This document shows positions 5,011 through 24,483 of a stretch of 64,000 nt of DNA, piece after piece. Both the position numbers and the translations under genes were made by a program. The notes beneath the pieces are model-generated. The model was given only the letters and a program-made list of their open reading frames with translations. It was not told where the DNA came from and did not search any database. Position 1 is the first letter of the stretch, and each line of letters begins with the position of its first letter. The DNA lies in contig CAYQCW010000001.1 in NCBI GenBank assembly GCA_964416155.1, positions 170,943 to 234,942 of the forward strand, given 5' to 3'. The stretch is from an uncultured Nitrososphaerota archaeon. Its GTDB lineage: Archaea > Thermoproteota > EX4484-205 > JAAOZP01.

Positions 5011-5015
5011 AACAG

Positions 5016-6247: not shown

Positions 6248-6655
6248 TTGACCATGAAGTATAGGCTCATGGACCTGCTTGCCTGCCCAATAGACAAGGA
6301 TTTCCCCTTGAAACTAATAGTTTTCCAAGAAGAAGAAAGAAGTATTGAGTTTAAGCACGACAGCGTGATATGCGAGCTCTACTGCGGCTTAAACACAGCC
6401 CGCGTCAAAGACGCCGGCCTAAGCGCGGGGATATGTAACAAATGCATGAAAAGAGAGATACTAAACGGTTTACTAATATGCTCTAAGTGTAACAGATGGT
6501 ATCCGATCATTGACGAGATCCCCCAACTTCTTCCCGATGAATTAAGAGACTTGAAGGAAGACCTTTCCTTCCTAAGGAAATATGCTGAGAAGATTCCTAA
6601 AAACATACTTGAAGAAGGAAAGCCTTTCAACCTTGCAACATTACGCGAAAGTTAA
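6248..6655 (+). CDS. Trm112-like / zinc-ribbon protein
   Basis: The N-terminus MKYRLMDLLACPIDK is Trm112-like. The C-terminal half carries C-x2-C pairs (CNKC, CSKC) consistent with a zinc ribbon. Confidence 0.4.
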   Translation: MTMKYRLMDLLACPIDKDFPLKLIVFQEEERSIEFKHDSVICELYCGLNTARVKDAGLSAGICNKCMKREILNGLLICSKCNRWYPIIDEIPQLLPDELRDLKEDLSFLRKYAEKIPKNILEEGKPFNLATLRES

Positions 6656-6795
6656 CCTTTTCACGCCGGTTCAGAATGTGCCAAATTAGCACGCTAATTG
6701 GTGAACCATATGGCTTTAACAAGAATTTCTACGGCCTCCTTCGTTAGGAGCTTCCGGTTTAACAAGGCAAGCCTAGTGTACAATGCGCACGCTGG

Positions 6796-7569
6796 CTAAA
6801 CATTCCTGATCTCACAGACTTCGAAGAAACATTTCATCTCATCATGTATTTTTTCAAGCTCATCCGCTGGATAAACTTGCTTTTCCAGAAAAATCTTATC
6901 AAGGGTTTTAGTCGGCTTAAACTGCTGAATGAAAAATCTTCTCGCACCCTTAAGCCACCTAGCTATGGCTAAAATATCCTCTCTCGTAAGAAGCTCGGGG
7001 ACGACTGTTGTCCTAAACTCGTGCTCCGGGAAAGCCTTAATTATCTCAACGCTTTCAGCAATCCTACTACCGTCAACCGTAACCCTAACTACGCTCTCGT
7101 ATTTTTCCAACGGTGCTTTAACATCCATAGCAATATAGTCGACAAGCCTTCCCCCTATGAGCCTCCTAAGCGTTTCAGGGCTTGTTCCATTCGTATCCAG
7201 CTTAACAGAATATCCTAGATCCTTAACCCTCTTAATGAAGTTTGGAAGATCGTTGTGAAGCGTTGGCTCCCCGCCGGTTATGCATACCCCGTCCAGGAAA
7301 CGTTTCCTCACCTCCAAGAAACGAAGCACGTCGCTCTCAGGGATCAACGGTGCTCCATCATCTATAACCAGCTCGGGGTTATGGCAATACGGACAGCGAA
7401 AGTTGCAGCCGAACGTGAATAATGTGCATGCAACCCTACCCGGATAGTCTATCAGGCTTAGTTTCTGTATTCCTTTTATTATCAAGCTCCGACTACCCGA
7501 GTTTTCAAAAACGGGGGATTTAAGGTTTATTTTAAAAATAGGAAAACTATCTGTTCCCACATGTTTCAA
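6796..7569 (-). CDS. Radical SAM activating enzyme (PflA/NrdG glycyl-radical-activase-like family)
   Basis: The motif FGCNFRCPYCHN (C-x3-C-x2-C, the GC..RC.YC.N pattern) is present and the protein is 257 aa. It lies 3 bp downstream of purQ on the same strand. Confidence 0.6.
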   Translation of the reverse strand: MKHVGTDSFPIFKINLKSPVFENSGSRSLIIKGIQKLSLIDYPGRVACTLFTFGCNFRCPYCHNPELVIDDGAPLIPESDVLRFLEVRKRFLDGVCITGGEPTLHNDLPNFIKRVKDLGYSVKLDTNGTSPETLRRLIGGRLVDYIAMDVKAPLEKYESVVRVTVDGSRIAESVEIIKAFPEHEFRTTVVPELLTREDILAIARWLKGARRFFIQQFKPTKTLDKIFLEKQVYPADELEKIHDEMKCFFEVCEIRNV

Positions 7570-7571
7570 AA

Positions 7572-8441
7572 TTATTTTTCAGAACTATTATTAAGCGTCT
7601 TATTCTCACGGTATAGCGTGGACTTGCACGGATTACCTGTTGAATAATGCTGTTTATCTCTTAAGTATTTAACAATGCTCTCGAAAATCTTCCTCCCATC
7701 TGCTCTTTCAGGAGGGGCCTTACCCCACTCCGGTAGCTGCCATCCGAAGAAAGCCCTTTCAGGATGCGGCATCATCCCCATGACATTCCCCTTCCTGCTG
7801 CAAATCCCGGCGATATCGTATGTTGAGCCATTAGGATTAAACGGGTATAGACCGTTAGCATCATCCCCGTTTGGAAGAACATATCTGAAGACAATCTGTC
7901 TATTCTTCTTAAGCTCTTCCAAATCCTCTTCTGACCGTGTGAGGAACCTTCCTTCAGCATGCCCCACCGGTATTCTGAGAACCTCCCCCTTTTTCATCAT
8001 CACAGTGAAAGGAGTCTCATTGTTTTCAACCCTTAGCCAGACCCATCTGCACTCATACCTGGCTGAAGAATTGTCCGCAAGCGCTGCCGACGGGGTTTCG
8101 CTGACACCGTCTCCGGGCAGTATCCCGGCTTCAACGAGAACCTGGAAGCCGTTGCAGACGCCGAGCACAAGCCTACCCTCATTTATAAATTTCTCAAGCT
8201 CCATCCTGAGCTTTGTCAGAACCCTTTTACCCCATACTGCTCCAGCCCTCACGTAGTCCCCGTATGAGAATCCCCCGGGGAAAACGACTAGATGATAGTC
8301 GAAAAGGCTTTTCTTCTCGAGTTGATTCATATGGATTATTTCAGCATTAACACCCACCTTCTCGAGAGCAATGCTTGTTTCAAGATCGCAATTCGTGCCG
8401 CCGGTCCTGAGGACGCAAGCCTTAAACCCGTCAAGGCTCAT
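7572..8441 (-). CDS. purQ: Phosphoribosylformylglycinamidine synthase subunit PurQ (glutaminase)
   Basis: It has a class I glutamine amidotransferase fold with the catalytic GVCNGFQ. It is adjacent to purL, with 1 bp of spacing. Confidence 0.8.
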   Translation of the reverse strand: MSLDGFKACVLRTGGTNCDLETSIALEKVGVNAEIIHMNQLEKKSLFDYHLVVFPGGFSYGDYVRAGAVWGKRVLTKLRMELEKFINEGRLVLGVCNGFQVLVEAGILPGDGVSETPSAALADNSSARYECRWVWLRVENNETPFTVMMKKGEVLRIPVGHAEGRFLTRSEEDLEELKKNRQIVFRYVLPNGDDANGLYPFNPNGSTYDIAGICSRKGNVMGMMPHPERAFFGWQLPEWGKAPPERADGRKIFESIVKYLRDKQHYSTGNPCKSTLYRENKTLNNSSEK

Positions 8442-8442
8442 T

Positions 8443-10692
8443 TCAGTAACCCCTCCAGGCCTTCTTGATTTCCGACGTGCTTAACTCGCACACCTCTCTA
8501 TTCAGATCAGTCATACGCAACCCGAAGCCTCTGGCTACTCTGCCAATCATGCTGAACGGTAGTCCTGAGAACAGTTCCTCAAACCTCCTCCACCGGGCTC
8601 CATCAACCTCAACGAGGAACCTTGATGTCGACTCTGAGAAAAGAACGTAGTCGCTCCTAGCCGTGTTTGAGGGGGCCTTGCGGAGATCTAACTCTATGCC
8701 CAGGTTTTTCGATGCGACTACCATCTCAGCCGCAGCCACTCCTAAACCACCCTCCGAGAGATCGTGACACGACAACACGAGTTTCTCGTCAACCGCCCGG
8801 ATTAGAGAGTCGATCAGGCTCTTAGATAGCCTGGCATCCAGCTTAGGCACCTCTCCGCCGTCAACCCCTTTAAGCCTAAAGTATGCTGAGCCCCTCAGCT
8901 CCTCCCTGGTTAAGCCGATAATGTAAACAGGGTTCCCCTCCTCCTTAAGGCTTAAAGTAACCACGTTCCGGATGTCAGGAATTATCCCTACGCCTGTCAC
9001 TAGTAGGGTTGGCCTCACTGAGCCCAGCGGCGACTCGTTGTAAAGACTATCCTTGCCTGAGATGAATGGTGTGTCTAAAGCTCTTGAGAAATCGTAGCAA
9101 GCCTCAGCAGCCCTCAGCAACCTACCCATGTTATCCTCGTTCTCGGGGCTTCCCCAGACAAAGTTATCCAATATCGCGACCCTCCTCCCCCCGGCGGCAG
9201 CATTATTCCTTAAAGCCTCTTCTATAGAGGCTGCAGCCATCCAGTATGGGTCGGGGTAGAAAGGGTTTATTCCGCACGATATTACGATTCCCATCCAGGA
9301 ATCTCTGAGGGGCTTTATCACCGCAGCGTCGCTCGGCCCAGCCTCCTCACCGTGAAGAGGCTTAACCACCGTGCATCCCCTCACCTCGTGATCATAGGTT
9401 CTGATAACATCCTCCTTACTCCTAATATTTGGGTCTGAGAGAAGAGTCAGAATCTCTTCGGCAAGGTCAACAGGCTCCTCTAAGTCAACCCTCGCTGGTG
9501 TGAGCAAAGGTATTTTCGCCCTCCTAGTAACCTTAGGAGGGTTGAACAGGAAGCCCAGGTCTAAGTCGCATACGACGGTTTTCCTCGTGAAAACCCTGAC
9601 CCTGCCTGTTTCAACAAACCTTCCTACGACGCTTGCCTCGACATCCTCCTCGCCAAATATCTCCAGGACTCTTTCAAGGTTTTCCTCCGGCACTGAGAGA
9701 AGCATCCTCTCCTGCGATTCTGAAACCCATATCTCCCAGGGAGCCATGTCAGGAGCCTTCAGAGGAACCCTATCCAGCTCGACGTCAACACCTAGGCTTG
9801 ACCTGTATGCCATTTCCCCTGCTGCACAGGATAATCCTCCCCCACCCAGGTCAGTTATACCCGTGGCAAGCCTCTCATCCCTTATTCTTATAATAGCTCT
9901 TCTAAGCCTCTCCTCCACTATCGGGTTCGGTATTTGAACAGCCGACCTCAACTCTTCAGCCTCCTCAGTAAGCTCAGCCGATGCGAACGTCACCCCGTGA
10001 ATACCATCCCTGCCTGTTCTACCTCCCGCAAGAACAGCCAAATCCCCGTTGCGCGTGTTTTTCACGTAAGCAGCCTTGGGGAGAACCCCTATGCAGCCGC
10101 AGTACACGACAACGTTTCCAGTGTAACCCTTGTCGAAGATTACCGCTCCGGAGACATTGGGAACACCCATGTTGTTGCCGTAGCTGCCTATTCCGGCCAC
10201 TACACCCCTATATATGTAGCGGGGATGCTTAACGCCAGGGGGGAGCTCCTCATACCTGGTGTCCAACGGGCCGAAACACAGTACGTCTGTTAAAGCAACC
10301 GGCTCACCCCATACTCCGAGAATATCCCTTATTACGCCTCCTACTCCGGTTGCGGCCCCTCCGAAAGGCTCTACCGCGGAAGGATGGTTATGCGTCTCAA
10401 CCTTGGCAGCTATAGCATAACCCTTGTCGAAATCAATTATTCCAGCATTGTCCTCGAACACTGAAATACACCAGTCCTTTTCCAGTTCCCTGGTCGACCT
10501 CATTATGTACGTCTTCAAAATACTGTTGATTAAACGACCATCGTCGATAGCAACATCGCCCTTGAAAACGTTGTGAAAACAGTGTTCAGACCATGTTTGG
10601 CCAATCATCTGGAGCTCAACATCCGTCAGGGGTCTGTCTCCGAAATACTGTTTTAAATACCTCATTCTCTCCAGACTCATGCTGAGCCCCAT
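8443..10692 (-). CDS. purL: Phosphoribosylformylglycinamidine synthase subunit PurL
   Basis: This 749-aa protein has the duplicated PurM-like domains typical of PurL and is embedded between purQ and purS. Confidence 0.9.
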   Translation of the reverse strand: MGLSMSLERMRYLKQYFGDRPLTDVELQMIGQTWSEHCFHNVFKGDVAIDDGRLINSILKTYIMRSTRELEKDWCISVFEDNAGIIDFDKGYAIAAKVETHNHPSAVEPFGGAATGVGGVIRDILGVWGEPVALTDVLCFGPLDTRYEELPPGVKHPRYIYRGVVAGIGSYGNNMGVPNVSGAVIFDKGYTGNVVVYCGCIGVLPKAAYVKNTRNGDLAVLAGGRTGRDGIHGVTFASAELTEEAEELRSAVQIPNPIVEERLRRAIIRIRDERLATGITDLGGGGLSCAAGEMAYRSSLGVDVELDRVPLKAPDMAPWEIWVSESQERMLLSVPEENLERVLEIFGEEDVEASVVGRFVETGRVRVFTRKTVVCDLDLGFLFNPPKVTRRAKIPLLTPARVDLEEPVDLAEEILTLLSDPNIRSKEDVIRTYDHEVRGCTVVKPLHGEEAGPSDAAVIKPLRDSWMGIVISCGINPFYPDPYWMAAASIEEALRNNAAAGGRRVAILDNFVWGSPENEDNMGRLLRAAEACYDFSRALDTPFISGKDSLYNESPLGSVRPTLLVTGVGIIPDIRNVVTLSLKEEGNPVYIIGLTREELRGSAYFRLKGVDGGEVPKLDARLSKSLIDSLIRAVDEKLVLSCHDLSEGGLGVAAAEMVVASKNLGIELDLRKAPSNTARSDYVLFSESTSRFLVEVDGARWRRFEELFSGLPFSMIGRVARGFGLRMTDLNREVCELSTSEIKKAWRGY

Positions 10693-10775
10693 TTCCCTGC
10701 TTATCTCAAGAAGATCGTCATCGCTTGCTGAAGAAAGGCCTATAGTGTAAACCTCTAGATCCCCATACGGCTTCT

Positions 10776-10976
10776 TCAGGAGCCCCGGCTGCAGGTCGAG
10801 AGCACCTCTACGCTGTAATCATCCTTAACGGGGTTGGCCAACAGTTTTCTACACATTTCCTCCGCAAGCCTTACTGCTTCTTCACGATCGTTAGATTCAA
10901 CGTCAACAATATAGACTTTGCCGGTTTTAACCATAGTCACGGGGAAGCCGAGATCCCTTAGCGATTTAGCAGTCAC
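10776..10976 (-). CDS. purS: Phosphoribosylformylglycinamidine synthase subunit PurS (start uncertain; the conserved N-terminus continues upstream without a canonical start)
   Basis: The C-terminus EEMCRKLLANPVKDDY matches the PurS signature. In the same frame, RLRVEVKLKPGHSDPEGD lies immediately upstream of the GTG start and overlaps the 3' end of purE. Confidence 0.7.
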   Translation of the reverse strand: MTAKSLRDLGFPVTMVKTGKVYIVDVESNDREEAVRLAEEMCRKLLANPVKDDYSVEVLSTCSRGS

Positions 10977-11023
10977 ATCGCCCTCAGGGTCGGAGTGACC
11001 CGGTTTAAGCTTAACTTCAACCC

Positions 11024-11458
11024 TCAGCCTCGTTTCTTCCTTTCCTCCTTAAGCCTCTCCGCGAGCCCAGGGTATTTCAGGGACAGTATTTCAACCGCCA
11101 GTATCGCAGCATTCTTCCAGTTGTCCACGCCGACAGCAGCAACCGGTATGCCTGGAGGCATCTGGACGATTGAAAGAAGCGCGTCTAGACCACCAAGCTT
11201 AACCTCCCTTGGAACACCGATCACGGGCTTAACGGTTTTAGACGCTATAACCCCGGGCAGGGCTGCTGAAAGACCAGCCACCGCGATAAACACTTCTGCA
11301 TCACTGTTCTTAACGAAAGAGTCCAGCTCATCGGGATTCCGGTGGGCGGAGAGAACCCTGTAATCACAGTCAACATCAAATTCTTTCAAGAAGCCAACGA
11401 TGTTTCTACCGAGCTCGTCATCAGACTTGCTCCCCACTATGACGGCAGCCTTAGCCAT
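11024..11458 (-). CDS. purE: N5-carboxyaminoimidazole ribonucleotide mutase (PurE)
   Basis: The protein is 144 aa and carries AKAAVIVGSKSD..FIAVAGLSAALPGV, typical of PurE. Confidence 0.85.
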   Translation of the reverse strand: MAKAAVIVGSKSDDELGRNIVGFLKEFDVDCDYRVLSAHRNPDELDSFVKNSDAEVFIAVAGLSAALPGVIASKTVKPVIGVPREVKLGGLDALLSIVQMPPGIPVAAVGVDNWKNAAILAVEILSLKYPGLAERLKEERKKRG

Positions 11459-11460
11459 TG

Positions 11461-11715
11461 TTAAGACCCCTCGTAGAACATTTGTTTCTCAGCGAAGTGC
11501 GTGACGACTTCATTACTCCCAGCCTCCTCTATATCCTTGTGGAACGCTACTGATAGGCCCAATTCTCCTCTGCCTACCGATATGAATACTGCTGGCCTAG
11601 ACGTTTCTAGCAACTCTATTGGGCTAAGCCTCTTCTCAACCTCACTACTGTAGGAGGGGACACGTTCAATCAGGCTGATTCCCACATCAGGCTTCATTCT
11701 AACAGTCATTTTCAA
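11461..11715 (-). CDS. Hypothetical small protein encoded inside the pur operon
   Basis: This 84-aa ORF overlaps the purD start codon by 4 bp (ATGA), indicating translational coupling, and ends 3 bp before purE. No family recognised. Confidence 0.35.
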   Translation of the reverse strand: MKMTVRMKPDVGISLIERVPSYSSEVEKRLSPIELLETSRPAVFISVGRGELGLSVAFHKDIEEAGSNEVVTHFAEKQMFYEGS

Positions 11716-13217
11716 CCAACCTCCTCCAATCCTTTTCCAGGTATCCAGATCATTCTCCTACCGAGAATCCCCTTTCTCTCCCTATATTTATATATTTCTC
11801 TCGCCATGTCGGCTAGCATTATCCTCCTCTCTAAAGACTTCTCAGAACCGATGTCACTCCTGTGGAAAAGCCCCCAGCCATCTGCAAAGCTAACCTTCGA
11901 CGTAAGCCTCTCAGCAATGCTGCTTGCCTCAGGTATGGTTTCCGCAACGCCGAGACACTCTACAAGCCTGGAACCGCCACTCTCTATGATTCCAGAGTCT
12001 TTCAAATCCGCTGAAGCCCAGAAAACCCCCTCCCCATAGTCGTGAACTAGCACAGGATGGCCCTTTGCAAGATCCCTGCTCAACGGGTATCCGTGTGGCG
12101 AGACTGCTTTCACAACCGTGGCCTTCTCCTCAAACTCAATACTAACAGTGTTAAGCCTCTCGCTTATTATCGCCTCACATATTTCGACGATATCGGTCTT
12201 CAAAACGGCGAGGACGTTTAAAGCCTCAGGATCCCCAAGCCTAGAATACATTTCTATTATCGTCGGCCCCCATATGGAGGTCAGCATCATCTGCCCGGCT
12301 ACAACACCATGATATTTTCTCCCAGTTTCACGCTGAATAGCATCAACCATCATCCTAACTATTTCAGCAGATTTCTCAACCTCCTCCTCAGTAAGTATAG
12401 ACCTATCATCGTTAACACCCCATTTCAGATTCATGCCGCAACATATAGACCCCATTCCACCCGTTTCAGGGCCAAGGTCGCCGTCGAAGGCATGCTTGTT
12501 ATCTTGGACAGCGGGCATCGGCACTATCGTCCTACCGTCCGTGAAACATTGCAACGTATACTCCGGCCCCCAGACCCTCTCCTCTATCAGTATTTTGAAA
12601 TCCACGTCGCCGTAACCCTTCATGTAGTCCCTGTAGATGGATTCGACATGCTGCTTCTTCACCTTCTTCTTCTCTTCTTTCAAATAGACTTGGAAATCCT
12701 CTATCACTTTAACTCCTTTCCCACCTACCTGCCTAGCAGGCTTAAGCGCGACGCTCTCAGCATACTCTTCAACATACGGGGCAGCCTCATCGAACGTTCT
12801 GAACTTCTTATACCAGAGCCGCCCCGGAATCCCGTATTTCCACTGTAGATCCCTCATGCTCGCCTTCGACAACTCTATCTCAGCAACCTGCCTGTTCGCA
12901 CCTATGCATGGAATACCTTTCTCCTCAAGAATGTCCGGAACACCGTGGAAATTAGGCTCCTCAGGACCTATGAAAACGAAGTTGACACCAGTCTTTAAAG
13001 CGTTCTTCAAAACCGTCTCAGCATCATTAGGATCCCCAACATAATACTCGCCACCACTTTTTTTAACAATCCTGCTTATACCCGGGTTGACGAGGTCAGA
13101 GAGGCAGTAGAGCCTGAGCGAGTAACTGCTTCTCGCGAAAGCCGCTGCTACGGCATGCTCCCTCCCGCCACCGCCAACCAGAAGAACCTTCAACCAGCTA
13201 CACCTCCGGATAGACAC
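11712..13217 (-). CDS. purD: Phosphoribosylamine--glycine ligase (PurD), unusually long
   Basis: The N-terminal KVLLVGGGGREHA and ATP-grasp core match PurD. At 501 aa it exceeds the usual 420 to 440 aa, with a Lys-rich insertion and a C-terminal extension. Confidence 0.85.
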   Translation of the reverse strand: MSIRRCSWLKVLLVGGGGREHAVAAAFARSSYSLRLYCLSDLVNPGISRIVKKSGGEYYVGDPNDAETVLKNALKTGVNFVFIGPEEPNFHGVPDILEEKGIPCIGANRQVAEIELSKASMRDLQWKYGIPGRLWYKKFRTFDEAAPYVEEYAESVALKPARQVGGKGVKVIEDFQVYLKEEKKKVKKQHVESIYRDYMKGYGDVDFKILIEERVWGPEYTLQCFTDGRTIVPMPAVQDNKHAFDGDLGPETGGMGSICCGMNLKWGVNDDRSILTEEEVEKSAEIVRMMVDAIQRETGRKYHGVVAGQMMLTSIWGPTIIEMYSRLGDPEALNVLAVLKTDIVEICEAIISERLNTVSIEFEEKATVVKAVSPHGYPLSRDLAKGHPVLVHDYGEGVFWASADLKDSGIIESGGSRLVECLGVAETIPEASSIAERLTSKVSFADGWGLFHRSDIGSEKSLERRIMLADMAREIYKYRERKGILGRRMIWIPGKGLEEVG

Positions 13218-14511
13218 AGTTGAAACAGCCTAGGCAAAGCTCATCCCCTTTTAATCCGATCGCATCAATCAATCCCTCTATGCTGAGATACTTGAACGAA
13301 TCTGCGCCAACAACCTCAGCGATCTTCTCTTCAGACAAGTGTCTCCCTATGAGCTCATCCTCAGGCGGAACCTCAACGCCAAAGGGACAGTGGGAAACAA
13401 TATGCGGGCTCCCTATTCTAACGTGTATCTCCTTAGCGCCCTTCTCCTTCATCAAGTAGACTATGTTCGCAAGCGTGTTACCCCTTACGACGCTGTCGTC
13501 AATCAGCACAACCCTCTTACCTCTAACAGCCTCGCTTATCACGTTCAGCTTAAGCTGAACACCCTTGAGTCTTTCAAACTGATCCGGTCTCAGAGCACTC
13601 CTAACCCTCCTGCCAGTAAGCTCAAAACCCTTCTCTATAGGAATACCTGTCTCGTTAGAATATGCCATTGCGAATGGTATTGCCGTCTCAGGAACACCTA
13701 TCACCACGTCCGCGTCCACCCTGTCCTCCTCAGAAAGCCTCCTGCCTATGTTCCTCCTAACCCTGTATATCGGAATATCGTTAACATACGAGTCAGGCCT
13801 AGCCAAATACACGTATTCAAAGCTGCAGTAGGCCCTGCCTGATGAATCACCACCCTTAACCAAGCGTGCTGAGAAGTGTGTGAAAACCATCGCGTCCCCA
13901 GCCTCAATGTTCTCCGCAGGGCTTATCGGAACCCTCTCGCCAATAACGTCCATCACGCAGCTCTCTGAAGCAACAATCCCGCCTTCAAACCCGAATTTGC
14001 CGAGCACGAGCGGCTTAACACCGAGGCTGCACCTTCCCGCAACCATCTCCATCCGGTGGTTCACAGCAATGTAGGTGAAGCCTCCCTTACAGTTGTCGAA
14101 AAACTCTTTAACAGTCTCTATTTCCCCCCTGGGCCCGACGAAGCTTGCGAAAGCCCTCCTCAGGTTACCCTCGTAGCTTAGCGAAGCATTCCAAGAATAC
14201 CCCTCAACCCTAGTTATTCTGCCGTCTAAAGCCATTGAGACTTTCTCATTCAAGGCAAGAGGCTGAATATCCTCCTCGGCTTCAACAGGATACGGGGAAA
14301 CCGCGCCCAGGCAGATATGCCCCTCAGTCCCTAAATGGCTTAAAACATCTTCAACCAAGCCTTTACCAGATATTCTCCGCCTAGCCTGCCCTATGAGCTC
14401 CAGTCCAGCCGTCTCCTGACCCCTGTGTTGTAGAGCCAGCAACCCGTATACTCCGAAGCTCCCAGCGTTCCACCTCTCGTCGAAAAGATATATTCCCAGT
14501 ATCCCCGTCAT
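13198..14511 (-). CDS. Amidophosphoribosyltransferase-like paralog (PurF-like; N-terminal nucleophile position is Thr)
   Basis: An Ntn-type N-domain is followed by the PRTase motif VVLIDDSVVRGNT and a C-terminal Cys cluster CLGCFNC. Mature position 1 is MTGILGIY rather than MCGI. Confidence 0.7.
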   Translation of the reverse strand: MTGILGIYLFDERWNAGSFGVYGLLALQHRGQETAGLELIGQARRRISGKGLVEDVLSHLGTEGHICLGAVSPYPVEAEEDIQPLALNEKVSMALDGRITRVEGYSWNASLSYEGNLRRAFASFVGPRGEIETVKEFFDNCKGGFTYIAVNHRMEMVAGRCSLGVKPLVLGKFGFEGGIVASESCVMDVIGERVPISPAENIEAGDAMVFTHFSARLVKGGDSSGRAYCSFEYVYLARPDSYVNDIPIYRVRRNIGRRLSEEDRVDADVVIGVPETAIPFAMAYSNETGIPIEKGFELTGRRVRSALRPDQFERLKGVQLKLNVISEAVRGKRVVLIDDSVVRGNTLANIVYLMKEKGAKEIHVRIGSPHIVSHCPFGVEVPPEDELIGRHLSEEKIAEVVGADSFKYLSIEGLIDAIGLKGDELCLGCFNCVYPEV

Positions 14512-15995
14512 GTAACTCCCCCCAGCCTCGTGAACTCATCCCTCTCATAGATCCTCCTCTCATCCCTAAAGTCTGTCGAAGCCTTGGCGGTGTCAGCCAT
14601 CTTCTGAGTAAGCTCGGTCGGATACTTTCCTGTTACGCATGCTAGGCAAAGCTCGTTAACACCCATTCCCGTGGCCCTGACATAGTCCTCCAGAGGCTGG
14701 TAGAAAACCCCGTCGGCACCAACCTGTTTCGCAATACCCTCCTCGTCAAACCTGAAGCCGATAAGCTCTGTGAAAGTAGCCATGTCAACACCGTAGAAAC
14801 ACGGGTGAGTTATCCTCGGGAAAGTTATGAAGAGAAAAACCTTCTCAGCGCCAGCCCTCCTAAGCTTCCTAACCACAGTCCTAGTGGTGTCACCCCTGAC
14901 AATACTGTCGTCGACAACAATAACCTTCTTGCCCTTAAGCCTCCCGTCCATAATGTTCACCTTCTTGTCAATCGTTGAAACCCTTTCACCGGGCTCGAGA
15001 ATGAAAGCCCTCTGAGTAACATACCTGTGCCTCCTAAGAACTCTCTCCCATTTCAAGCCAGTCTCCTCATGCAGACCGTACGCAGCGTCCTCAGCCGTCT
15101 CAGGCATTGAAAGAATCACGTCAGACTTCTCAACAACATCCCTAAATCTCCTCCCCAGGTTTCTGCCAAACTCCTCCCTCACGCTGTAAACATACTTCCC
15201 GTTGAGCAGGGAATCCGGCCTAGCGAAGTAAGCATATTCAAAAGCGCAGAAAGCAGTCCTATCCTTCTTCACAAGCCTCTCCCTTTCAACACCATCCTTA
15301 CTAAAGACAACAATCTCACCAGGCTTAACATCACTCGTAAACCTCAGCCCGTTAATGTCAAACCCAACAGTCTCAGAGGAGAAAGCATTAACCGCACCGT
15401 CCTCGCTAACCCCGATGCTGAGAGGCCTTATTCCAAGCGGGTCCCTGAAGGCGAAAAGCTCCCCGTTAGACCTCAGGCCCACGACAGAAAAGGCGCCTTC
15501 AACATCCCTCATGCAGCGCTCAACACCACTAACTAAACCTCCATCAACACTCATGACAAGGATTTTTGATAAAACAACCGCGTCACAGCCCGCTTCAAAA
15601 CCCCCGGAAGCCTTCAGACGACTCCTAAGCTCATTAACGTTAACAATATTACCGTTGAAAGCGAAACCAATCTTCTCACTCCCGTGGGAAGATATTAGCG
15701 GCTGCGCATCATTCAGCCGAGAAGAGGAACCCCTATCCCCCGACGTGCCATACCTGACGTGAGCAACTCCAACACTCCCCTGCAGAAAGCCACGCCACCT
15801 AGAATACCTCTCGCCAAAAACCTGTGGAACAAGGCCAACATTCACATGCCGCCTGAAACCCTCCGCACACGTTAAAAAACCATAAGACTCATGACCCCGA
15901 TGGTTCTGTGCCACAAGCCCCCAATATAAAAGGTCGAAAACACACCTGCCGCCTAAACACTTCGCCCCAAACACGCCGCAGCTCTCGGCAAGCAT
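14508..15995 (-). CDS. purF: Amidophosphoribosyltransferase (PurF) with short propeptide
   Basis: The N-terminal MLAES is followed by CGVFG, giving a catalytic Cys after the propeptide. The PRTase motif VIVVDDSIVRGDT is present. It overlaps the upstream paralog by 4 bp. Confidence 0.85.
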   Translation of the reverse strand: MLAESCGVFGAKCLGGRCVFDLLYWGLVAQNHRGHESYGFLTCAEGFRRHVNVGLVPQVFGERYSRWRGFLQGSVGVAHVRYGTSGDRGSSSRLNDAQPLISSHGSEKIGFAFNGNIVNVNELRSRLKASGGFEAGCDAVVLSKILVMSVDGGLVSGVERCMRDVEGAFSVVGLRSNGELFAFRDPLGIRPLSIGVSEDGAVNAFSSETVGFDINGLRFTSDVKPGEIVVFSKDGVERERLVKKDRTAFCAFEYAYFARPDSLLNGKYVYSVREEFGRNLGRRFRDVVEKSDVILSMPETAEDAAYGLHEETGLKWERVLRRHRYVTQRAFILEPGERVSTIDKKVNIMDGRLKGKKVIVVDDSIVRGDTTRTVVRKLRRAGAEKVFLFITFPRITHPCFYGVDMATFTELIGFRFDEEGIAKQVGADGVFYQPLEDYVRATGMGVNELCLACVTGKYPTELTQKMADTAKASTDFRDERRIYERDEFTRLGGVT

Positions 15996-16334
15996 TTACG
16001 GCAAAAAACATTTCCGGCAGGTATTTAAAAATTCGCTAACATGAACAAGTTAAATTACCAAGTTTATGTTAAAAAACTCGAGGGATAGGCACAGTTTTGC
16101 AATATTCTACTTCCTGGTTCTCTGGAAGCGGGTTATAGTCATCCTGAGTGGAAAGCGGAATCCCAGTCGACAGGGAAAGCCAACAGCTCTTTAAGCGGAA
16201 ATTAGCGCGGGCTATACCGAACTACAAGGGTAGTGGAAGATGAACCTCGCCCCCGTATCAGAAGAACGGTACGAACCTCTCTCCGTCGAAGCTAAGCGTC
16301 CCCGTTACAGTGCCATCTAACATGCGTAGAGGCA

Positions 16335-16843
16335 CTAGGGTGGAGAGCCCTCCGCCCCTGGCTTTCCTTCCCTGAACCTCCTCAGCAGAGTATCCTCCCT
16401 AAACGGCATTGCTCTGCTATCCTCTAGCATGGCCATGCCGACTAGGGTTCCGTCAGGCAGGAAGTTGACGTGTCTCGCCCCAACTATCTTCTCACCCCCG
16501 ATTCTTTCGATCAAAGTGTCTCCATTGAGCAACAACACTCTACCATCCTCCAGCTTTACGAGAAATGCTGGGTTTCCGTTTAGCAGCCTGAAGAGGAAAC
16601 TTCCCTCTAAAACTTTCATCCCATGGGCTTCATCTATAAGCTTGTCGCTGACGAAGGGAACTTGCCGGCCATCATCTAAGAAGACTCGCCTACCAAAATA
16701 TTGCCAAAGAAGACTCTGTAGGAAACCCGCGCAGCCTTAAACTCCTTCCCGCCAATCCTATCTATCAGGATATCGTCCCTGAACAAGAGTTCTCGCTCGA
16801 ACCCCTGAACCCAGAGCGCGCGCAAATTTATACCCTGTCGCAT
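16335..16843 (-). pseudogene. Internally duplicated small repeat-protein gene disrupted by a 29-bp tandem duplication (two ORFs of 56 and 94 aa in different frames)
   Basis: The upstream ORF (ATG at 16843, stop at 16676) and the 94-aa ORF (16335..16619) encode homologous repeats, DDILIDRIGGKEFKAARVSYRVF versus GDTLIERIGGEKIVGARHVNFLP. Removing one copy of the 29-bp unit bounded by AAGAAGACTC (16678-16687 and 16707-16716) fuses them in frame. Confidence 0.4.
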
Positions 16844-17244
16844 CCCACCTTCCGACGCAGTAGCCGTAATGCTTGCAGCACCACCGTAAGAAGCAGACTA
16901 TCTGTTTTCCATGTTCCCGGCGTACCCTAGGCTAACACGCAAACTAGTAGTATGCTCGCTACCAGCAAAGAAACTGCTATAATAATGCCGGGGATCATTA
17001 AACTAGAGTTCTTTAAATCTTTCACGTGTACCACCTCCGCTTATAGGGGGTAATGGGTCATATATTGCGGAGGCCGATATCGATATATTTCACATTCGAA
17101 AAAGAACAATAGAATGCTCCAAAAAGAGGTCAAAAAATCCAATTCATCCCCATCTGCAGAATTTGGTTAAAACCTTGCTCAAGAATTTTGCTCGCGATAA
17201 CGCTCCCATATGCCTTTTTCCATGGAGCATAAAATGGTGCCGCG

Positions 17245-18174
17245 CTAAGTTAGAACATTGTCAACGCTAAGCAAGCCTAGGTCGTCGACACTAACTCCTT
17301 CAGCAAGAACCCTGTATGCTCCGACGCATCTTTTAGCAACCTCCTTAACAACTGGTTTAGGCAGCTCCGGCGGCTCCCCCTCTCCAACGAAACCCATTCT
17401 CCTTAAGCATTCTCTGAGAAACTCTTTGTCCAGGCAATGCGACTCCTGCGGTTCTCCAACCCTGTAGTATTCGACTGCCCAGAGCCTTGCGGAGTCATGT
17501 GTAGGCGGCTCATCTATCTGAATCAACTCATCCCTGTAGAAGCCAAACTCTATTTTGAAGTCGGGTATTATTATTCCTGCTTTCCGAGCCTCAGCCTCGT
17601 AAAACTCGTAAAGCTTGAGAGCAGCCTCCTCCAGCGTGCGCCAGGTATCCGCGTCAATAAGCTTCATCTCTAACGCTTCAGCCCTGGTGATCTCCCTGTC
17701 GTGGCCCACGTCGGCCTTCGTAGTGGGTGTTAACACTGGTTCCGGAAGCTCCTCAGCCATCCTTAGTCCATCTGGAAACCTTAATCCGTACATTTCCCTC
17801 CTGCCCTCCCTGTAAGCCCTCCATAATGATCCGTAAAGGTATTTCCTAATAACCCATTCAATATTGACCCTCCGAGCCTTCCTCACTAGTATGCTCCTCT
17901 CGTCCACAACGTCTATAAGATGGTTTGGAAAAACCTTTCTGCTCCTCCTCATCCAGAACACAGTCAGCTTCTGCAAGTATTCCCCCTTCCTAGGTATTGG
18001 TGTGGGAAGCACGACGTCGAACACCGAAACCCTGTCAGTGTGATAGATTAGGAGTTCCTCCCCCAGGTCGTATATGTCCCTGACCTTCCCCCTTAACGGC
18101 TTCCCGATGTTCAGGTTAGAGTATTTGACGACGAGTGTTTCCCCGCCTGTTAAAGGATCCTCCGCCAGCCACAT
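17245..18174 (-). CDS. purC: Phosphoribosylaminoimidazole-succinocarboxamide synthase (PurC/SAICAR synthetase)
   Basis: Motifs GKVRDIY and LLIYHTDRVSVFD match PurC. The longer ORF (to 18366) has a non-PurC-like N-terminus, so the start was placed at MWLAEDP. Confidence 0.8.
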   Translation of the reverse strand: MWLAEDPLTGGETLVVKYSNLNIGKPLRGKVRDIYDLGEELLIYHTDRVSVFDVVLPTPIPRKGEYLQKLTVFWMRRSRKVFPNHLIDVVDERSILVRKARRVNIEWVIRKYLYGSLWRAYREGRREMYGLRFPDGLRMAEELPEPVLTPTTKADVGHDREITRAEALEMKLIDADTWRTLEEAALKLYEFYEAEARKAGIIIPDFKIEFGFYRDELIQIDEPPTHDSARLWAVEYYRVGEPQESHCLDKEFLRECLRRMGFVGEGEPPELPKPVVKEVAKRCVGAYRVLAEGVSVDDLGLLSVDNVLT

Positions 18175-18327
18175 CAACGCCTTTTTCACACGGGTGTTTA
18201 AAAACGTTTCCAACCCTAGGGGTTTAAAGCTTATCTTTACCCTCTGCAAAAGCATATTATGGGATGCTCTGTTCCTCCACCGCCACCTGGTCAAATATAC
18301 CTTTCTACGACTCCTGAAATACCTGGC

Positions 18328-18609
18328 ATGAGAATCGTTAAAAGTTTGGGAATAATCTTTGGGCAAACAGTCAGGACGAGGGGTGCTCTTGGAAGATTTG
18401 TAGCTGGGATAGAGGCGCTGGTCGGGGGTAAGTCGGAAGTATACCTCTCGGAAATCGAGAAGGCGAGGAATGAAGCCCTTGAGAACCTGGTGAGGAAAGC
18501 AGCCTCAATGGGTGCAAACGGTGTAGTTGGCGTAGATTTCGAAACGTCTGAAATCCTAGAGGGCTTCATAGTAATCACCGCCGTGGGAACTGCTGTAAAG
18601 GTGGAGTAG
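18328..18609 (+). CDS. YbjQ/UPF0145 (DUF74) family protein
   Basis: MRIVKSLGIIFGQTVRTRG..GANGVVGVDFE is typical of the YbjQ heavy-metal-binding-like fold. Confidence 0.6.
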   Translation: MRIVKSLGIIFGQTVRTRGALGRFVAGIEALVGGKSEVYLSEIEKARNEALENLVRKAASMGANGVVGVDFETSEILEGFIVITAVGTAVKVE

Positions 18610-18698
18610 GAAGACCCTCGGCGCGCTACACGTTTTATTCGTAATTATTGATGTTGGCCCAGGAAACTGTTAAATACTTCCCTCAAGCATGCTTATCC

Positions 18699-18932
18699 AT
18701 GGTTGTTAAAGCATACGTGTTCATAGTGACGAAGCCCGGCACATCCATCGAGGTTTCAAACGAAATTAAGAGGATCAGTGGTGTTTATTCGGCTGACCCT
18801 ATCTACGGCAGGTTCGATGTGGTGGCGACGGTGGAAGCCGAGAGCCCCGAGGAATTAACTAGGCTGCTCTACGAGGTTATTGAGAAGATTCCGAATATAG
18901 TTAGAACGGAAACCTCAATAGTTTTGCAGTGA
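18699..18932 (+). CDS. Stand-alone RAM (Lrp/AsnC ligand-binding) domain protein
   Basis: MVVKAYVFIVTKPGTSIEVSNEIKRISGV..DVVATVEAESPEEL has the shape of an Lrp/AsnC C-terminal domain without an HTH. Confidence 0.5.
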   Translation: MVVKAYVFIVTKPGTSIEVSNEIKRISGVYSADPIYGRFDVVATVEAESPEELTRLLYEVIEKIPNIVRTETSIVLQ

Positions 18933-18938
18933 CTTTAA

Positions 18939-19172
18939 ATGATCAGGGCCTTCATCCTGGTTAGAACCAAGCCGGGTACTTCTGAAGAAGTCGTAAGGGC
19001 AAGAAGGATCAAGGGTGTTAAACTGGCTAATTCCGTCCTAGGAAGGTATGATGCAGTGCTGGTGATAGAATCTAAGAGCCTGGAGGAACTAAGGAAAACT
19101 ATCTACGAGGTTCTGGAGAAGCTTGAGCACGTGGAGCACACGGAGACCCTGATATCTTTCTCTCCAGATTAA
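18939..19172 (+). CDS. Stand-alone RAM (Lrp/AsnC ligand-binding) domain protein, second copy
   Basis: MIRAFILVRTKPGTSEEVV..YDAVLVIESKSLEEL matches the same fold. It sits tandem to the previous ORF, 6 bp apart. Confidence 0.55.
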   Translation: MIRAFILVRTKPGTSEEVVRARRIKGVKLANSVLGRYDAVLVIESKSLEELRKTIYEVLEKLEHVEHTETLISFSPD

Positions 19173-19234
19173 CCGGCGGTCCTTCTCACCCCATGTTTTC
19201 ATCAAACCTGTTAGTGATTTTTTTAAATCAAAGC

Positions 19235-20380
19235 TTAGACGCGATACTCAAATTTACCATCTTTCGAAATAATGATTAGCGAGTTTCCCTCAGCAGATTT
19301 TTCACACCTGCCGATTACTTGGGCACCGACATGGAACTTTTCAGATATATCTATAACAGTATCCTCAAACTCTTTCTCGACAATTATCTCTAAACCTATT
19401 CCCATGTTGAAGCTTCGATACATGTTTACCAGAGTCTCCCGGCTTTCAGCCTGAATCAGCCTAAATATTGGATCTGGTTCAGGAAGATTATCCTTCACAT
19501 ACCTTATGTTCCTCCCTATTTTCAAACATTTCGTTAACCCTCCACCAGTATTATGAATTATGGCTTTAACCTCAACACTTTTAATGACCTCGAGTATTGT
19601 TTGCAGGTAGATCCTAGTCGGCGACAATAATGCTTCCCCGATGCTCATGTTAAGCTCATCTACGAAAGAATCTATTTTGAAGCGACCGTAATACCCTTTG
19701 GCTTCTGAGCCTATCTCAGGATACTTATCCAAGTATTCTCTCGCTAACAGGCAGTGTCTCGCAAGCGTTATCCCGTTGCACATTATTCCACTGTTCTCCT
19801 TCTCCTCATATACGGATCTTCCCCCGCTTCTCAACCCGACTATAACATCCCCGGGCAAAATGTTTCTGCCAGTTATCACTTTGGAGAACTCGACTCTAGC
19901 CATCACTGTTCCTGAAACGTCGAATGTTCTGACAATATCAGGCAGGTCAGCCGTCTCGCCTCCGCTGAAAAGAATAGGAACACCGTTCCCCCTGAGCATT
20001 GAAAAAACTCTGGAGAAGCCTTTAGCAAGGCTTTTGAGGAGCTCCTGTTTTGGGACTTTAAAAGGGTTTACTGCAACATAGTCTGAAAAAGCCACTGGCG
20101 ACCCTCCTACGCAAGCCGCGTCGTCAACATTCATGGCGACAACGTCGTCGGCCAATGTTTCGAAAAACTTCTTCTCACCAGTCTCCTTATAGTAGAGGTA
20201 GGAGACAACTGGCTTTGTTCCAGCACCATCGGTATGAAGAATTATCCCCCAGGCTGGGTTTAAAGAATCCTTAACTACAGGAGAGAAGGCTTCGGGGAAA
20301 ACGTCGTCCGTAATCTTTTTCAAAAACTCCACTCCTGTCTTGCTCACGTCTATGCCGAGCTCCTCATATCTTGAAGACAT
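19235..20380 (-). CDS. purM: Phosphoribosylformylglycinamidine cyclo-ligase (PurM/AIR synthetase)
   Basis: The PurM N-domain motif DVVAMNVDDAACVGG is present and the protein is 381 aa. Confidence 0.85.
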   Translation of the reverse strand: MSSRYEELGIDVSKTGVEFLKKITDDVFPEAFSPVVKDSLNPAWGIILHTDGAGTKPVVSYLYYKETGEKKFFETLADDVVAMNVDDAACVGGSPVAFSDYVAVNPFKVPKQELLKSLAKGFSRVFSMLRGNGVPILFSGGETADLPDIVRTFDVSGTVMARVEFSKVITGRNILPGDVIVGLRSGGRSVYEEKENSGIMCNGITLARHCLLAREYLDKYPEIGSEAKGYYGRFKIDSFVDELNMSIGEALLSPTRIYLQTILEVIKSVEVKAIIHNTGGGLTKCLKIGRNIRYVKDNLPEPDPIFRLIQAESRETLVNMYRSFNMGIGLEIIVEKEFEDTVIDISEKFHVGAQVIGRCEKSAEGNSLIIISKDGKFEYRV

Positions 20381-22474: not shown

Positions 22475-23902
22475 ATGAGTGAGAAAAATACTCTTGTATT
22501 CACAATAGACGCTCAAATAACTCCTTCAGATTACACGGATCTAGTTGACTTCATATATCGGAACTATGTGGCTCCTAATTTGAAGCATTTTGCAAACGTC
22601 GTCAGAAGCACCTCTGAAACAGGGTTTTTCCTCTTCTTTACTGCCGTTGACCCGGATAGGAAATGGTATATCGACGTTCAGATAAGCATTGGAAAACCAA
22701 TCAATGTTAGAATGGTTTTAAGCAACAGCGAGGTTCCAGGATCAGCCGTAAACTGGTTGAGAAGCAGCCTAGTGGCTGCGGTCAGGTTTTTCGAAGAACA
22801 GCTTAGAAAAACAACCGTCTACTTCACCTGGGTCGAGGGCGAGGAAATAATACCTGAAAGGGTTCTTGAAGCCCGTAAGAATTTTGTCTACCGGATGTTT
22901 TCAGAAAGCATGCTTCTCCTTTTCATCCTATTCACCTCGCTCAGCATCATTCTATTCCTAATCTTGGGGTCTTATGCTCCAATAACACTCGTATTAATGC
23001 AGTTCATCCTAATTCTTTTCTCAGACAGGATTATTGGGAGAATGGGAGATTGGCATATCACTGAGAAAAACCCTCTAATACATGTTTTCCAGTATAGTAT
23101 TCCAGTTTCAGAATACAAATCCTTTCTAAACAAGTATGGTGGAGAAATTTTCTCGAAGATTAAGAAAGAGATTTACATCAAGACCCTAGCCGTCAGGAAG
23201 CCAATAGACTATGAAATATGCGCAGAAGTGTTGTCCCATTATGGGTTTGAGTGTAACCCTGAAAAAGCCTCAGCGAAGATCGTGAACTTGTATGAGATTG
23301 TAAAACAGGCTGCGGAGAAGTTTGAGCTTCCAGTGCCCAAGATCGTTGTCTCTAACACGACTCTGCCTAATGCTGCAGCCTCTGGGCCTTATCCGAGCCG
23401 TGGGGTAATCCTAGTGACCACAGGGCTGCTTGTCCAGCTTGACGAAAAGGAGGTTCTAAGCGTTATTGGACATGAGTTCAGCCATCTTAAAGGGAGGGAT
23501 CCGTTGTTTCTCTTTCTCCTGACCTCAATAGAGTATCTTCTCAGGTTTTACGTTTTCTGGCCGCTGCTATACTTCCTAGGATACTTCTATCTTATAATTG
23601 CTCTTGGAGCCGTCTACTTCATAGCTAAGTTTTTCGAGTCCAAGGCTGACTTAGAGTCTGCCATCAGAATAGGTGAGCCGCAGAACCTTGCAAACGCGTT
23701 GAGGAAAATAGGTTTTCGCAGGCTTCAGCTAGAGATGCGACGAGGATACGCTATTCAAGAATGGTTAGGATGGGATCCGCACCCACCTCTCTATTTCAGA
23801 ATATCTAGGCTGGAGAGCCTTAGGGACCCCAGTAGGATAAGGCATCCCTTGATAAGATCTATAAAAGACAATATACTTGGTTTCTTGGAAATAATTGGAT
23901 GA
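22475..23902 (+). CDS. Membrane metalloprotease, M48/HtpX-like HExxH, with a roughly 130-aa N-terminal domain of unknown family
   Basis: Hydrophobic helices flank VIGHEFSHLKGRD, the HExxH zinc motif in the HtpX-like arrangement. No family was recognised for the N-terminal soluble domain. Confidence 0.55.
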   Translation: MSEKNTLVFTIDAQITPSDYTDLVDFIYRNYVAPNLKHFANVVRSTSETGFFLFFTAVDPDRKWYIDVQISIGKPINVRMVLSNSEVPGSAVNWLRSSLVAAVRFFEEQLRKTTVYFTWVEGEEIIPERVLEARKNFVYRMFSESMLLLFILFTSLSIILFLILGSYAPITLVLMQFILILFSDRIIGRMGDWHITEKNPLIHVFQYSIPVSEYKSFLNKYGGEIFSKIKKEIYIKTLAVRKPIDYEICAEVLSHYGFECNPEKASAKIVNLYEIVKQAAEKFELPVPKIVVSNTTLPNAAASGPYPSRGVILVTTGLLVQLDEKEVLSVIGHEFSHLKGRDPLFLFLLTSIEYLLRFYVFWPLLYFLGYFYLIIALGAVYFIAKFFESKADLESAIRIGEPQNLANALRKIGFRRLQLEMRRGYAIQEWLGWDPHPPLYFRISRLESLRDPSRIRHPLIRSIKDNILGFLEIIG

Positions 23903-24483
23903 AAACCCGGAAGATTAGTTTAAAAATTATTAAAGCCACCCTCCATTCTTATTCGGAGTTGAAGTTCAAGGGAATAATCTTAGCAATGCTTGTCTTAGTT
24001 TCTGTTATCATCCTCTCTATTTCTACGAGATATACGAGCATTCCTCAGGCAAATTATACTAGCGGGAAAATTTTAAGCGTTCCTTTCGTCAAGCAGGGAC
24101 CCGACCTTTGCTCCGAGGCCTCCGCCAGCATGGTTCTTCTATATTACAGTCTAAACTTCTCGCAAGAAGAAATAAACGCGATGGGATTCGATAAGTTTGA
24201 GAACATGCTTACCTTCTTAGACAAGCATATTTACTGCTCATATAAATCGCTTTCAGTAGAAGAATTGAGAGAAGAAATTCGAAAAGGCAATCCCGTAATT
24301 ATCAGGTTAAGAATTGGGATTAGCCTCCATACGGTAGTGGCTGTTGGATATGAAAATGATTGGATAATTGTGCACGACCCTGCGTCAGGACCCTTCGTAC
24401 TGCTAAGGGTGGATGAATCGTTCATTTCTTCTTGGGCAGCGACTAACTACGCTTCAATAGTTTCACGTGGCCGTAGGCCTTGA
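23899..24483 (+). CDS. Membrane-anchored C39-like (papain-fold) cysteine peptidase domain protein
   Basis: After an N-terminal TM helix come QGPDLCSEASASMVLLYY (Cys motif) and LHTVVAVGYENDWIIVHDP (His motif), as in the Peptidase_C39_2 family. The start overlaps the upstream stop as ATGA. Confidence 0.45.
   Translation: MKTRKISLKIIKATLHSYSELKFKGIILAMLVLVSVIILSISTRYTSIPQANYTSGKILSVPFVKQGPDLCSEASASMVLLYYSLNFSQEEINAMGFDKFENMLTFLDKHIYCSYKSLSVEELREEIRKGNPVIIRLRIGISLHTVVAVGYENDWIIVHDPASGPFVLLRVDESFISSWAATNYASIVSRGRRP

Follow-up and report, generated by a model that had tools for sequence, protein, structure and literature searches.

A gene for an HtpX-like M48 metalloprotease and a gene for a C39_2-type cysteine peptidase adjoin each other in one small archaeal lineage, probably by chance

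Two protease genes that are joined by an ATGA stop/start overlap raise the question whether their products work together. In the window (the whole 64,000-nucleotide stretch of archaeal DNA analyzed here), the stop codon of an M48 metalloprotease gene overlaps at 23899–23902 with the ATG of a 194-amino acid ORF for a C39-like cysteine peptidase (23899..24483, + strand). The preliminary description took this pair for a hard-wired two-protease module. Our comparison favors a different answer: M48 and C39 are very likely two independent genes that became neighbors by chance. The first would encode a member of an archaeal HtpX-like M48 subfamily, with a cytoplasmic N-terminal domain, two TM hairpins, and an HExxH…E catalytic domain. 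The second would encode a standalone C39_2 cysteine peptidase of papain fold whose Gln-Cys-His-Asp site is intact. The closest relatives come from Brockarchaeota/Thermoproteota MAGs. The features of the locus are collected in Table 1.

Table 1. Features of the M48 and C39 genes and their products (positions in the window; C39 residues in long-form numbering)
Feature	Position	Strand	Remarks
Candidate archaeal TATA box TTTATATTTTAA	22426..22437	+	∼40 nt 5′ of M48 ATG; by sequence inspection
M48 (HtpX-like) zinc metalloprotease gene	22475..23902	+	475 aa
M48 N-terminal soluble α+β domain, ∼residues 1–125	22475..22849	+	β-α-β4-α-β; predicted cytoplasmic
M48 TM hairpin 1, ∼residues 143–188	22901..23038	+	hydropathy; long helices 146–190 in AF2 model
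HEFSH zinc-binding motif, residues 333–337 (His-333, Glu-334, His-337)	23471..23485	+	invariant in 38 sequences; aligned to HExxH of Vibrio HtpX 3cqb
Putative third zinc ligand Glu-388 (KFFESKADLES)	23636..23638	+	ligand role suggested by M48/HtpX family pattern
20-codon extension from ATGA ATG	23899..23958	+	probably not translated in C39 protein; frame comparison among relatives
Conserved A/T-rich box TTTAAAAATTATTAAAG, candidate TATA/BRE promoter of C39 gene	23919..23935	+	∼25–35 nt 5′ of TTG
C39_2-type papain-fold cysteine peptidase gene	23959..24483	+	174 aa from conserved TTG; 194 aa if from 23899
C39 N-terminal signal-anchor or signal-peptide helix, residues 24–44	23968..24030	+	hydropathy; helix 3–44 in AF2 model
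Gln-66…Cys-71 (QGPDLC), oxyanion-hole Gln and catalytic Cys	24094..24111	+	aligned to LahT150 Gln, Cys
His-144…Asp-160 (LHTVV…HDP), catalytic His and Asp	24328..24378	+	aligned to 3erv, LahT150 His and Asp

The assignment of the first ORF as an HtpX-like M48 protease was confirmed. Residues 271–448 match PF01435 with 62 bits (gathering score 20.3), and the catalytic fold resembles solved M48 structures. The GHEFSHLKG core lies between two hydrophobic hairpins, the second of which is predicted at residues ∼344–388. His-333, Glu-334, His-337, Glu-388, and Asp-392 are invariant in 38 homologues. The four predicted membrane segments form two hairpins around the catalytic domain, as in HtpX, with hydropathy stretches at 141–188 and 358–389 and helices in the AF2 model. 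Because they are organized as two hairpins, the N-terminal domain and the catalytic domain are predicted to share one side of the membrane; by analogy with HtpX, the catalytic domain would face the cytoplasm. When the PDB was searched with the M48 profile, only the HtpX fragment 3cqb was matched, and nothing matched the N-terminal domain.

In contrast to HtpX of E. coli and Vibrio (M48B), a protease for membrane protein quality control, the archaeal M48 is ∼180 residues longer. It possesses an additional N-terminal α+β domain of ∼125 amino acids, and its stretch from TM2 to the M48 core is ∼80 residues longer. Compared with eight NCBIfam HtpX equivalog models, it scores 39–73 bits (best 73.1 vs 341), far below the cut-offs of 245–422, and is therefore not an HtpX equivalog. 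Ste24p/ZMPSTE24 (M48A) features a membrane chamber of seven helices and acts on prenylated CAAX substrates, whereas only four TM helices are predicted for the archaeal M48, at 18–21% identity. The enzyme most likely serves in quality control by cleaving damaged or misassembled membrane proteins.

The N-terminal domain had been described as novel. This holds insofar as no Pfam or NCBIfam model matched it and literature searches returned no description of it. However, its fold is a common one (TBP-like/KA1-like α+β in fold comparisons), and the domain belongs to the regular architecture of an archaeal M48 family that is widespread and conserved at full length. The best 120 homologues all measure ∼470–490 amino acids, with a query coverage of ∼100%. 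A library-wide phmmer search with residues 1–135 retrieved only 69 representatives; we looked for the domain in other architectures, and it was N-terminal in every case, in full-length proteins of 466–489 amino acids. Shorter matches in this search may be fragments, and there was one weak match of 1827 amino acids (P0219).

The domain is probably a regulatory module that binds substrates, partners, or the membrane. Its fold class (Bet v 1/SRPBCC, KA1) frequently binds lipids or small ligands. This would also suit a BlaR1/M56-like signaling protease, in which the N-terminal domain senses a ligand and triggers the cleavage of a regulator, as opposed to general quality control. A weak Pfam M56 match (E = 0.0019) and database entries that name some homologues “M56 family” point the same way. 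We nevertheless regard such a role as improbable: the M56 score of 17.8 bits is far under the cut-off of 31, the NCBIfam models most similar to M48 are HtpX models without exception, and no regulator gene is conserved next to M48. At two loci, M48 orthologues lie beside LonB/SOD or GrpE/Hsp70, an anecdotal observation that fits proteostasis.

The second ORF matches PF13529 (Peptidase_C39_2, clan CA) over residues 59–162 (43.9 bits, gathering score 24, E = 4.6e-11), which together with its predicted N-terminal helix bears out the proposed membrane-anchored C39_2 peptidase. The motifs QGPDLCSEASASMVL and LHTVVAVGYEND..HDP contain the active-site residues: among 31 homologues, at least 90% retain Gln-66 and Cys-71, while His-144 and Asp-160 are invariant, in line with the Cys and His motifs of the preliminary description. 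The AF2 model (pLDDT 89.9) assumes a papain-like α+β fold. Foldseek aligned it with 3erv (5.8e-8), 6mpz (3e-6), and AvrRpt2 (4e-6), with PCAT1 and ComA also among the top matches, and profile searches of the PDB returned 3erv (2e-12) and LahT150 6mpz (2e-7). PeiR is likewise among the fold matches; a role similar to that of a pseudomurein peptidase was set aside because this resemblance is generic and only at the clan level.

Both the best profile and the best fold match are of the type represented by the putative C39-like peptidase 3erv from B. anthracis and YvpB from B. subtilis (PF13529). Like these, C39 is a standalone exported papain-fold protein with aligned Cys and His, but it is archaeal, shorter, and only 18% identical. 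Seven Lys/Arg residues ahead of its helix suggest an N-in orientation with the catalytic domain outside, and the single helix would anchor the enzyme to the outer face of the membrane or release it there. C39 most likely acts on an extracytoplasmic protein or peptide, which it would trim or mature. Literature searches on the bacterial YvpB-type proteins found no functional characterization, and searches on Peptidase_C39_2/YvpB and archaeal HtpX found no functional study of either archaeal subfamily. The C39 family is small and occurs in Brockarchaeota, Bathyarchaeia, Hecatellales, Nitrososphaeria, Methanomethylicota, and Hadesarchaea.

C39 also shares its clan and fold with the peptidase domains of LahT150, PCAT1, and ComA (PF03412), and Gln, Cys, His, and Asp align in both profile and structure comparisons. 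This similarity would be consistent with a double-glycine leader peptidase acting in trans, on precursors of ribosomal peptides whose genes and exporters lie elsewhere in the genome, a function that we consider unlikely here. The score against PF03412, the true C39 family, is 16.3 bits and remains below the gathering threshold of 22, and in structure the protein is closest to the YvpB-like 3erv and not to a PCAT. In contrast to the PCAT domains, C39 is neither fused to an ABC transporter nor next to one: no ABC exporter lies near C39 in the window, as the preliminary description had noted, and none adjoins C39 homologues in ∼20 distinct contexts. Small ORFs with double-glycine leaders, which the preliminary description had suggested looking for, were found neither among the small ORFs of 17.4–29.5 kb nor with a loose regular expression for such leaders, which gave zero matches in six frames of the whole window. 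Moreover, the cytoplasm is where PCAT peptidase domains work, whereas the C39 domain is predicted outside the membrane.

Conservation of the gene neighborhood had been named beforehand as a test that could refute the module, and the pair is not conserved in more distant relatives. In tblastn searches, M48 was found within 6 kb of C39 at only eight loci (L001-3 and L009-13), which form one shallow clade with 79–88% identity in C39, and at 0 of 27 loci with a C39 identity of ≤66%. The gene 5′ of C39 varies by lineage (GHMP kinase, EF-Tu-like GTPase, MeaB/ArgK-like GTPase, and others). Conversely, C39 is absent beside M48 in six other M48 contexts. M48 orthologues with 72% (L036/37) and 67% (L038) identity are located in the same synteny block as in the window (AIRS and NTP-transferase, M48, ARMT1-like, AP_endonuc_2 and PUA, cyclophilin-like and H+-PPase), and their M48-to-ARMT1-like gaps measure just 76 and 149 bp, without C39. 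The assembly that contains L038 (GCA_052744115.1) carries C39 on a separate contig, after a GHMP kinase gene (L004). More distant M48 orthologues adjoin MFS, LonB/SOD, GrpE/Hsp70, or RtcB.

A recurrent partner of C39 was also sought by clustering the ORFs within 3.5 kb of the gene at 35 loci. Only lineage-specific neighbors emerged (GHMP kinase, EF-Tu-like GTPase with DUF362, and MeaB/ArgK-like GTPase), and there was no protease, exporter, or precursor peptide among them. The two families are also unequally spread, with 1411 matches for M48 and 32 for C39.

The ATGA overlap is indeed present in the window, but comparison of the reading frames does not support the proposed translational coupling. 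Indels in L001-3 lead to a stop after six codons of the ATG-started C39 frame, in L013 this frame is stopped after seven codons, in L010 the ATG is replaced by ATA, and in L011 the frame is likewise interrupted or the ATG lost. Among the close relatives compared, an uninterrupted frame is confined to the window, L009/L012, P0001, and P0003, where it could be translated. In contrast, the TTG at 23959 is retained in every relative, begins 56 nt past the M48 stop in the window (56–58 nt across relatives), and is the start that gene callers chose for most C39 homologues. Doubt therefore falls on the start of the second gene and, with it, on the ATGA overlap.

Upstream of the TTG, all eight aligned loci share an invariant core of the TTTAAAAATTATTAAAG box, although three of them (L004, L014, and L015) have a gene other than M48 upstream. 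Similarity among the C39 loci ends to the left of this box. C39 thus appears to possess a promoter-like element of its own. As part of the same explanation, the overlap in the window very probably arises because the upstream frame happens to be open there, and is no conserved coupling device. Within the window's own clade, M48 and C39 lie on the same strand 0–58 nt apart, and this short gap may allow co-transcription by read-through there.

These data bear on the original proposal, in which M48 and C39 form a co-transcribed, translationally coupled membrane module that acts on a surface or secreted substrate, by processing or quality control, such as the large putative surface protein at 49320–51872. 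The shared strand, the overlap in the window, the adjacency retained at the eight closely related loci, and the predicted membrane association of both proteins would agree with such a module. It is, however, largely refuted by the lack of a conserved neighborhood, and we consider it highly improbable. In addition, the predicted topologies place the two active sites on opposite membrane faces, and nothing connects the pair to the surface protein, which is encoded 25 kb away.

The preferred explanation of two independent genes includes a rearrangement. In this scenario, C39 was relocated along with the TTG start and TATA-like box that belong to it and landed in the spacer between the M48 and ARMT1-like genes of a conserved housekeeping block, in a recent ancestor of the window's Brockarchaeota clade. 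That C39 was inserted here rather than lost elsewhere is suggested by parsimony over a few genomes. The functions of M48 and C39 are proposed from homology, and their membrane topology is predicted. Since both are independent archaeal genes whose adjacency is recent and limited to one small lineage, nothing indicates a dedicated two-protease machine, and the pairing, as a recent accident of gene order, has no significance as a module.

What the locus does highlight are two separate families: a very widespread archaeal HtpX-like family that bears a conserved N-terminal α+β domain, and, in TACK archaea, exported C39-like cysteine peptidases that make up a small family and have no exporter partner. 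Both are already present in public databases with automatic annotation, come as no surprise, and are suited to routine functional work. It is conceivable, if unlikely, that the exported C39_2 family of TACK archaea represents a dedicated, exporter-independent maturation protease, or that the conserved N-terminal domain of M48 senses lipids or the membrane and acts as the switch by which an HtpX-type protease is gated. In each case archaeal envelope or membrane proteostasis would gain a new component, for which the adjacency of the two genes is irrelevant. For a C39_2 maturation protease, the targets would be one class of proteins, either secreted or at the cell surface, and the reaction a sortase-like or leader-trimming step.

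The M48 and C39 genes encode new members of known, automatically annotated families ("M48 family metalloprotease" and "C39 family peptidase"). The product of the first ORF matches Pfam Peptidase_M48 over residues 271–448 (62 bits, cutoff 20.3) and carries GHEFSHLKG, with HEFSH at residues 333–337. The product of the second matches Peptidase_C39_2 over residues 59–162 (43.9 bits, cutoff 24) and contains the motifs QGPDLCSEASASMVL and LHTVVAVGYEND..HDP; C70 and C39 were among the weaker Pfam matches beside these two families. HtpX equivalog models from NCBIfam match the M48 protein partially and far below threshold (best 73 bits versus 341). The Pfam and NCBIfam placement, together with the motifs, thus bears out how the preliminary description assigned both ORFs. 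For both proteins, the nearest homologues are found in MAGs of Candidatus Brockarchaeota and Thermoproteota.

A search with the M48 protein gave 1411 matches, the best 120 of which are all ∼470–490 residues long, 50–92% identical at ∼100% query cover, and derive from MAGs of Brockarchaeota, Thermoproteota, Bathyarchaeota, Nitrososphaeria, and other archaea. A 38-member alignment is collinear end to end, with invariant His-333, Glu-334, His-337, Glu-388, and Asp-392 and many invariant positions in the N-terminal 130 residues as well. The AF2 model (pLDDT 81.9, pTM 0.80) comprises an N-terminal β-α-β4-α-β domain (residues ∼6–120), a helical hairpin (residues ∼146–190), an α/β region running into the catalytic core, and a second helical hairpin after HExxH. 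The N-terminal domain had been described as novel. Indeed, Pfam, NCBIfam, and the PDB profile search yielded no sequence-family name for it, but the 475-residue architecture is widespread and the modeled domain belongs to a common fold class. In a library-wide search with residues 1–135, the domain occurred only at protein N termini, in full-length matches of 466–489 residues. Residues 45–88 also matched P0219, a library protein of 1827 residues, five times but weakly (E 1.3e-4); it could be a repeat protein sharing the β-hairpin motif, or the matches could be noise. Because the first two transmembrane helices form a hairpin, the N-terminal and catalytic domains should share one side of the membrane, predicted by analogy with HtpX to be the cytoplasmic one (the catalytic side of HtpX is generally known to be the cytoplasm; see also PMC9263693). 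Most likely, the M48 protein would carry out quality control on membrane proteins in the manner of HtpX, and its N-terminal domain would serve as a regulatory or binding module.

The C39 protein is a genuine Peptidase_C39_2 member, whose family forms about 30 clusters in TACK-type archaea. Across the alignment, at least 90% of members have Gln-66 and Cys-71 (194-residue numbering), and all have His-144 and Asp-160. All four residues align to the PDB profile matches, a putative C39-like peptidase from B. anthracis (PDB code 3erv, 2e-12) and the double-glycine protease LahT150 (2e-7). With the confident AF2 model (pLDDT 89.9), Foldseek retrieved both of these, AvrRpt2, the peptidase domains of PCAT1 and ComA, and other papain-like enzymes. 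Seven Lys/Arg residues precede a hydrophobic helix of ∼21 residues at the N terminus, which places the catalytic domain outside the cell by prediction, either anchored or freed by signal cleavage. The protein is probably an active extracytoplasmic cysteine peptidase. In contrast, PCAT-type C39 domains act in the cytoplasm and are fused to an ABC exporter; the PCAT-type model PF03412 scores below threshold on the C39 protein. As the preliminary description had noted for the pair, no ABC exporter adjoins C39 in any context examined; the small ORFs with double-glycine leaders that it had proposed looking for were found neither near the pair nor elsewhere in the window. Of mild interest for routine characterization are the N-terminal domain of this archaeal M48 subfamily, so far uncharacterized, and the C39_2 family, predicted to be exported yet lacking an exporter partner.

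The two genes had been taken for a hard-wired module, a view tied to their remaining neighbors in related genomes, which they do in close relatives only. Each of 35 loci with a C39 homologue was probed with the window M48 protein by tblastn. M48 lies directly upstream of C39 in only eight (L001–3 and L009–13; C39 identity 79–88%), and these share every other flanking gene with the window, so they are one region seen in closely related genomes. No M48 homologue was found within the fetched flanks of the 27 loci with C39 identity ≤66%, where the gene preceding C39 varies by lineage: a GHMP kinase (L004/5), an EF-Tu-like GTPase with DUF362 following (L006–8, L016), a MeaB/ArgK-like GTPase (L018, L020, L023–26), or an unrelated protein of about 240 residues (L021, L028, L029, L031). 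Conversely, M48 orthologues of 72% (L036/37) and 67% (L038) identity sit in exactly the synteny block of the window, with the ARMT1-like gene directly following M48 after gaps of 76 and 149 bp. One assembly, GCA_052744115.1, contains both L038, with M48 and no C39, and L004, with C39 behind the GHMP kinase on another contig. Most parsimoniously, the C39 gene would have been placed into the M48/ARMT1-like spacer in a recent ancestor of the window's clade.

Remoter M48 orthologues neighbor MFS, LonB and superoxide dismutase, GrpE/Hsp70, or RtcB and thioredoxin genes; the LonB and Hsp70 cases (L040, L041) hint anecdotally at a part in stress or proteostasis. An ARMT1-like gene, which follows C39 in the window, also directly adjoins the C39 homologue of L027 (a Methanomethylicota MAG), there on the opposite strand. 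This one case in about 20 distant contexts is probably coincidental.

The stop codon of the M48 ORF overlaps the start of the C39 ORF as ATGA, previously read as translational coupling, and this overlap is not conserved. In the junction alignment, indels in L001–3 and L011 shift the frame behind the ATG, leading to a stop after six codons; the frame ends after seven codons in L013, and L010 has ATA instead. It is open only in the window, L009/L012, and two short library contigs (P0001, P0003). A TTG followed by AAG or AGG is kept in every aligned locus and starts the 173–175-residue form that gene callers give for most homologues. About 25–35 nt upstream of it lies an A/T-rich box, TTTAAAAATTATTAAAG, also written AAAATTnTTAAA(G/A), whose core does not vary among the eight aligned loci (window, L001, L004, L009, L010, L013, L014, and L015). 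L004, L014, and L015 have a different upstream gene, and similarity ends just left of the box. Given the general traits of archaeal promoters, its position and composition fit a candidate portable BRE/TATA promoter for a nearly leaderless, TTG-initiated mRNA. Because TTG and box are conserved independently of the upstream gene, the C39 gene appears to come with expression signals of its own. In the window's clade, transcription of M48 might also read through into it, though this is not needed.

The two genes of the pair appear to use separate start signals. Their active sites are predicted to face opposite sides of the membrane, the two families differ greatly in phylogenetic breadth (1411 M48 versus 32 C39 matches), and the adjacency is shallow. 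These observations are best explained by two unrelated membrane-associated proteases, which likely became neighbors through a recent change in gene order.

Coordinates of the protease pair and of other features discussed (window positions unless a locus is named)
Feature	Position	Strand	Remark
M48 gene	22475-23902	+	475 aa
C39 gene, from ATG	23899-24483	+	194 aa
A/T-rich box	23919-23935
TTG start of C39	23959
FGAM synthase, purL-like	8443-10692	-
GAR synthetase, purD	11712-13217	-
PRPP amidotransferase-like pieces	13198-15995	-	PurF
Phosphoribosyltransferase ORF	13198-14511	-	PurF piece
GATase_6/7 glutamine amidotransferase ORF	14508-15995	-	PurF piece
SAICAR synthase	17245-18366	-
YbjQ-like and two small AsnC-type ORFs	18259-19172
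AIR synthase	19235-20380	-
Putative surface protein	49320-51872	-	850 aa
L040, M48 orthologue by LonB protease and Fe/Mn superoxide dismutase	4001-7857
L041, M48 orthologue near GrpE and Hsp70	1-5419
L027, ARMT1-like gene and C39 homologue	~5000-6513

The 850-residue ORF with weak MG2, PPC, and bacterial Ig-like (Big_13) matches is probably the large surface protein once suggested as a possible substrate of the pair; it lies 25 kb away, and no link between the two was detected. The genes flanking the pair are housekeeping genes: SAICAR synthase, AIR synthase, aldo/keto reductase, and NTP-transferase upstream on the minus strand; an ARMT1-like damage-control phosphatase, a xylose-isomerase-like TIM-barrel protein, and a PUA protein downstream on the plus strand; and, beyond the latter, a cyclophilin-like protein and an H+-pyrophosphatase on the minus strand. 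Other genes in the window include pur genes and those for CDC48, DNA ligase, an Lhr helicase, a thermosome subunit, and PheRS-β. The run of purine-biosynthesis genes (8443–20380) is broken up by the YbjQ-like and AsnC-type ORFs. PurF, normally one protein, appears there as two ORFs with a 4-nt overlap; the gene may be split or frameshifted, or the sequencing may be in error.
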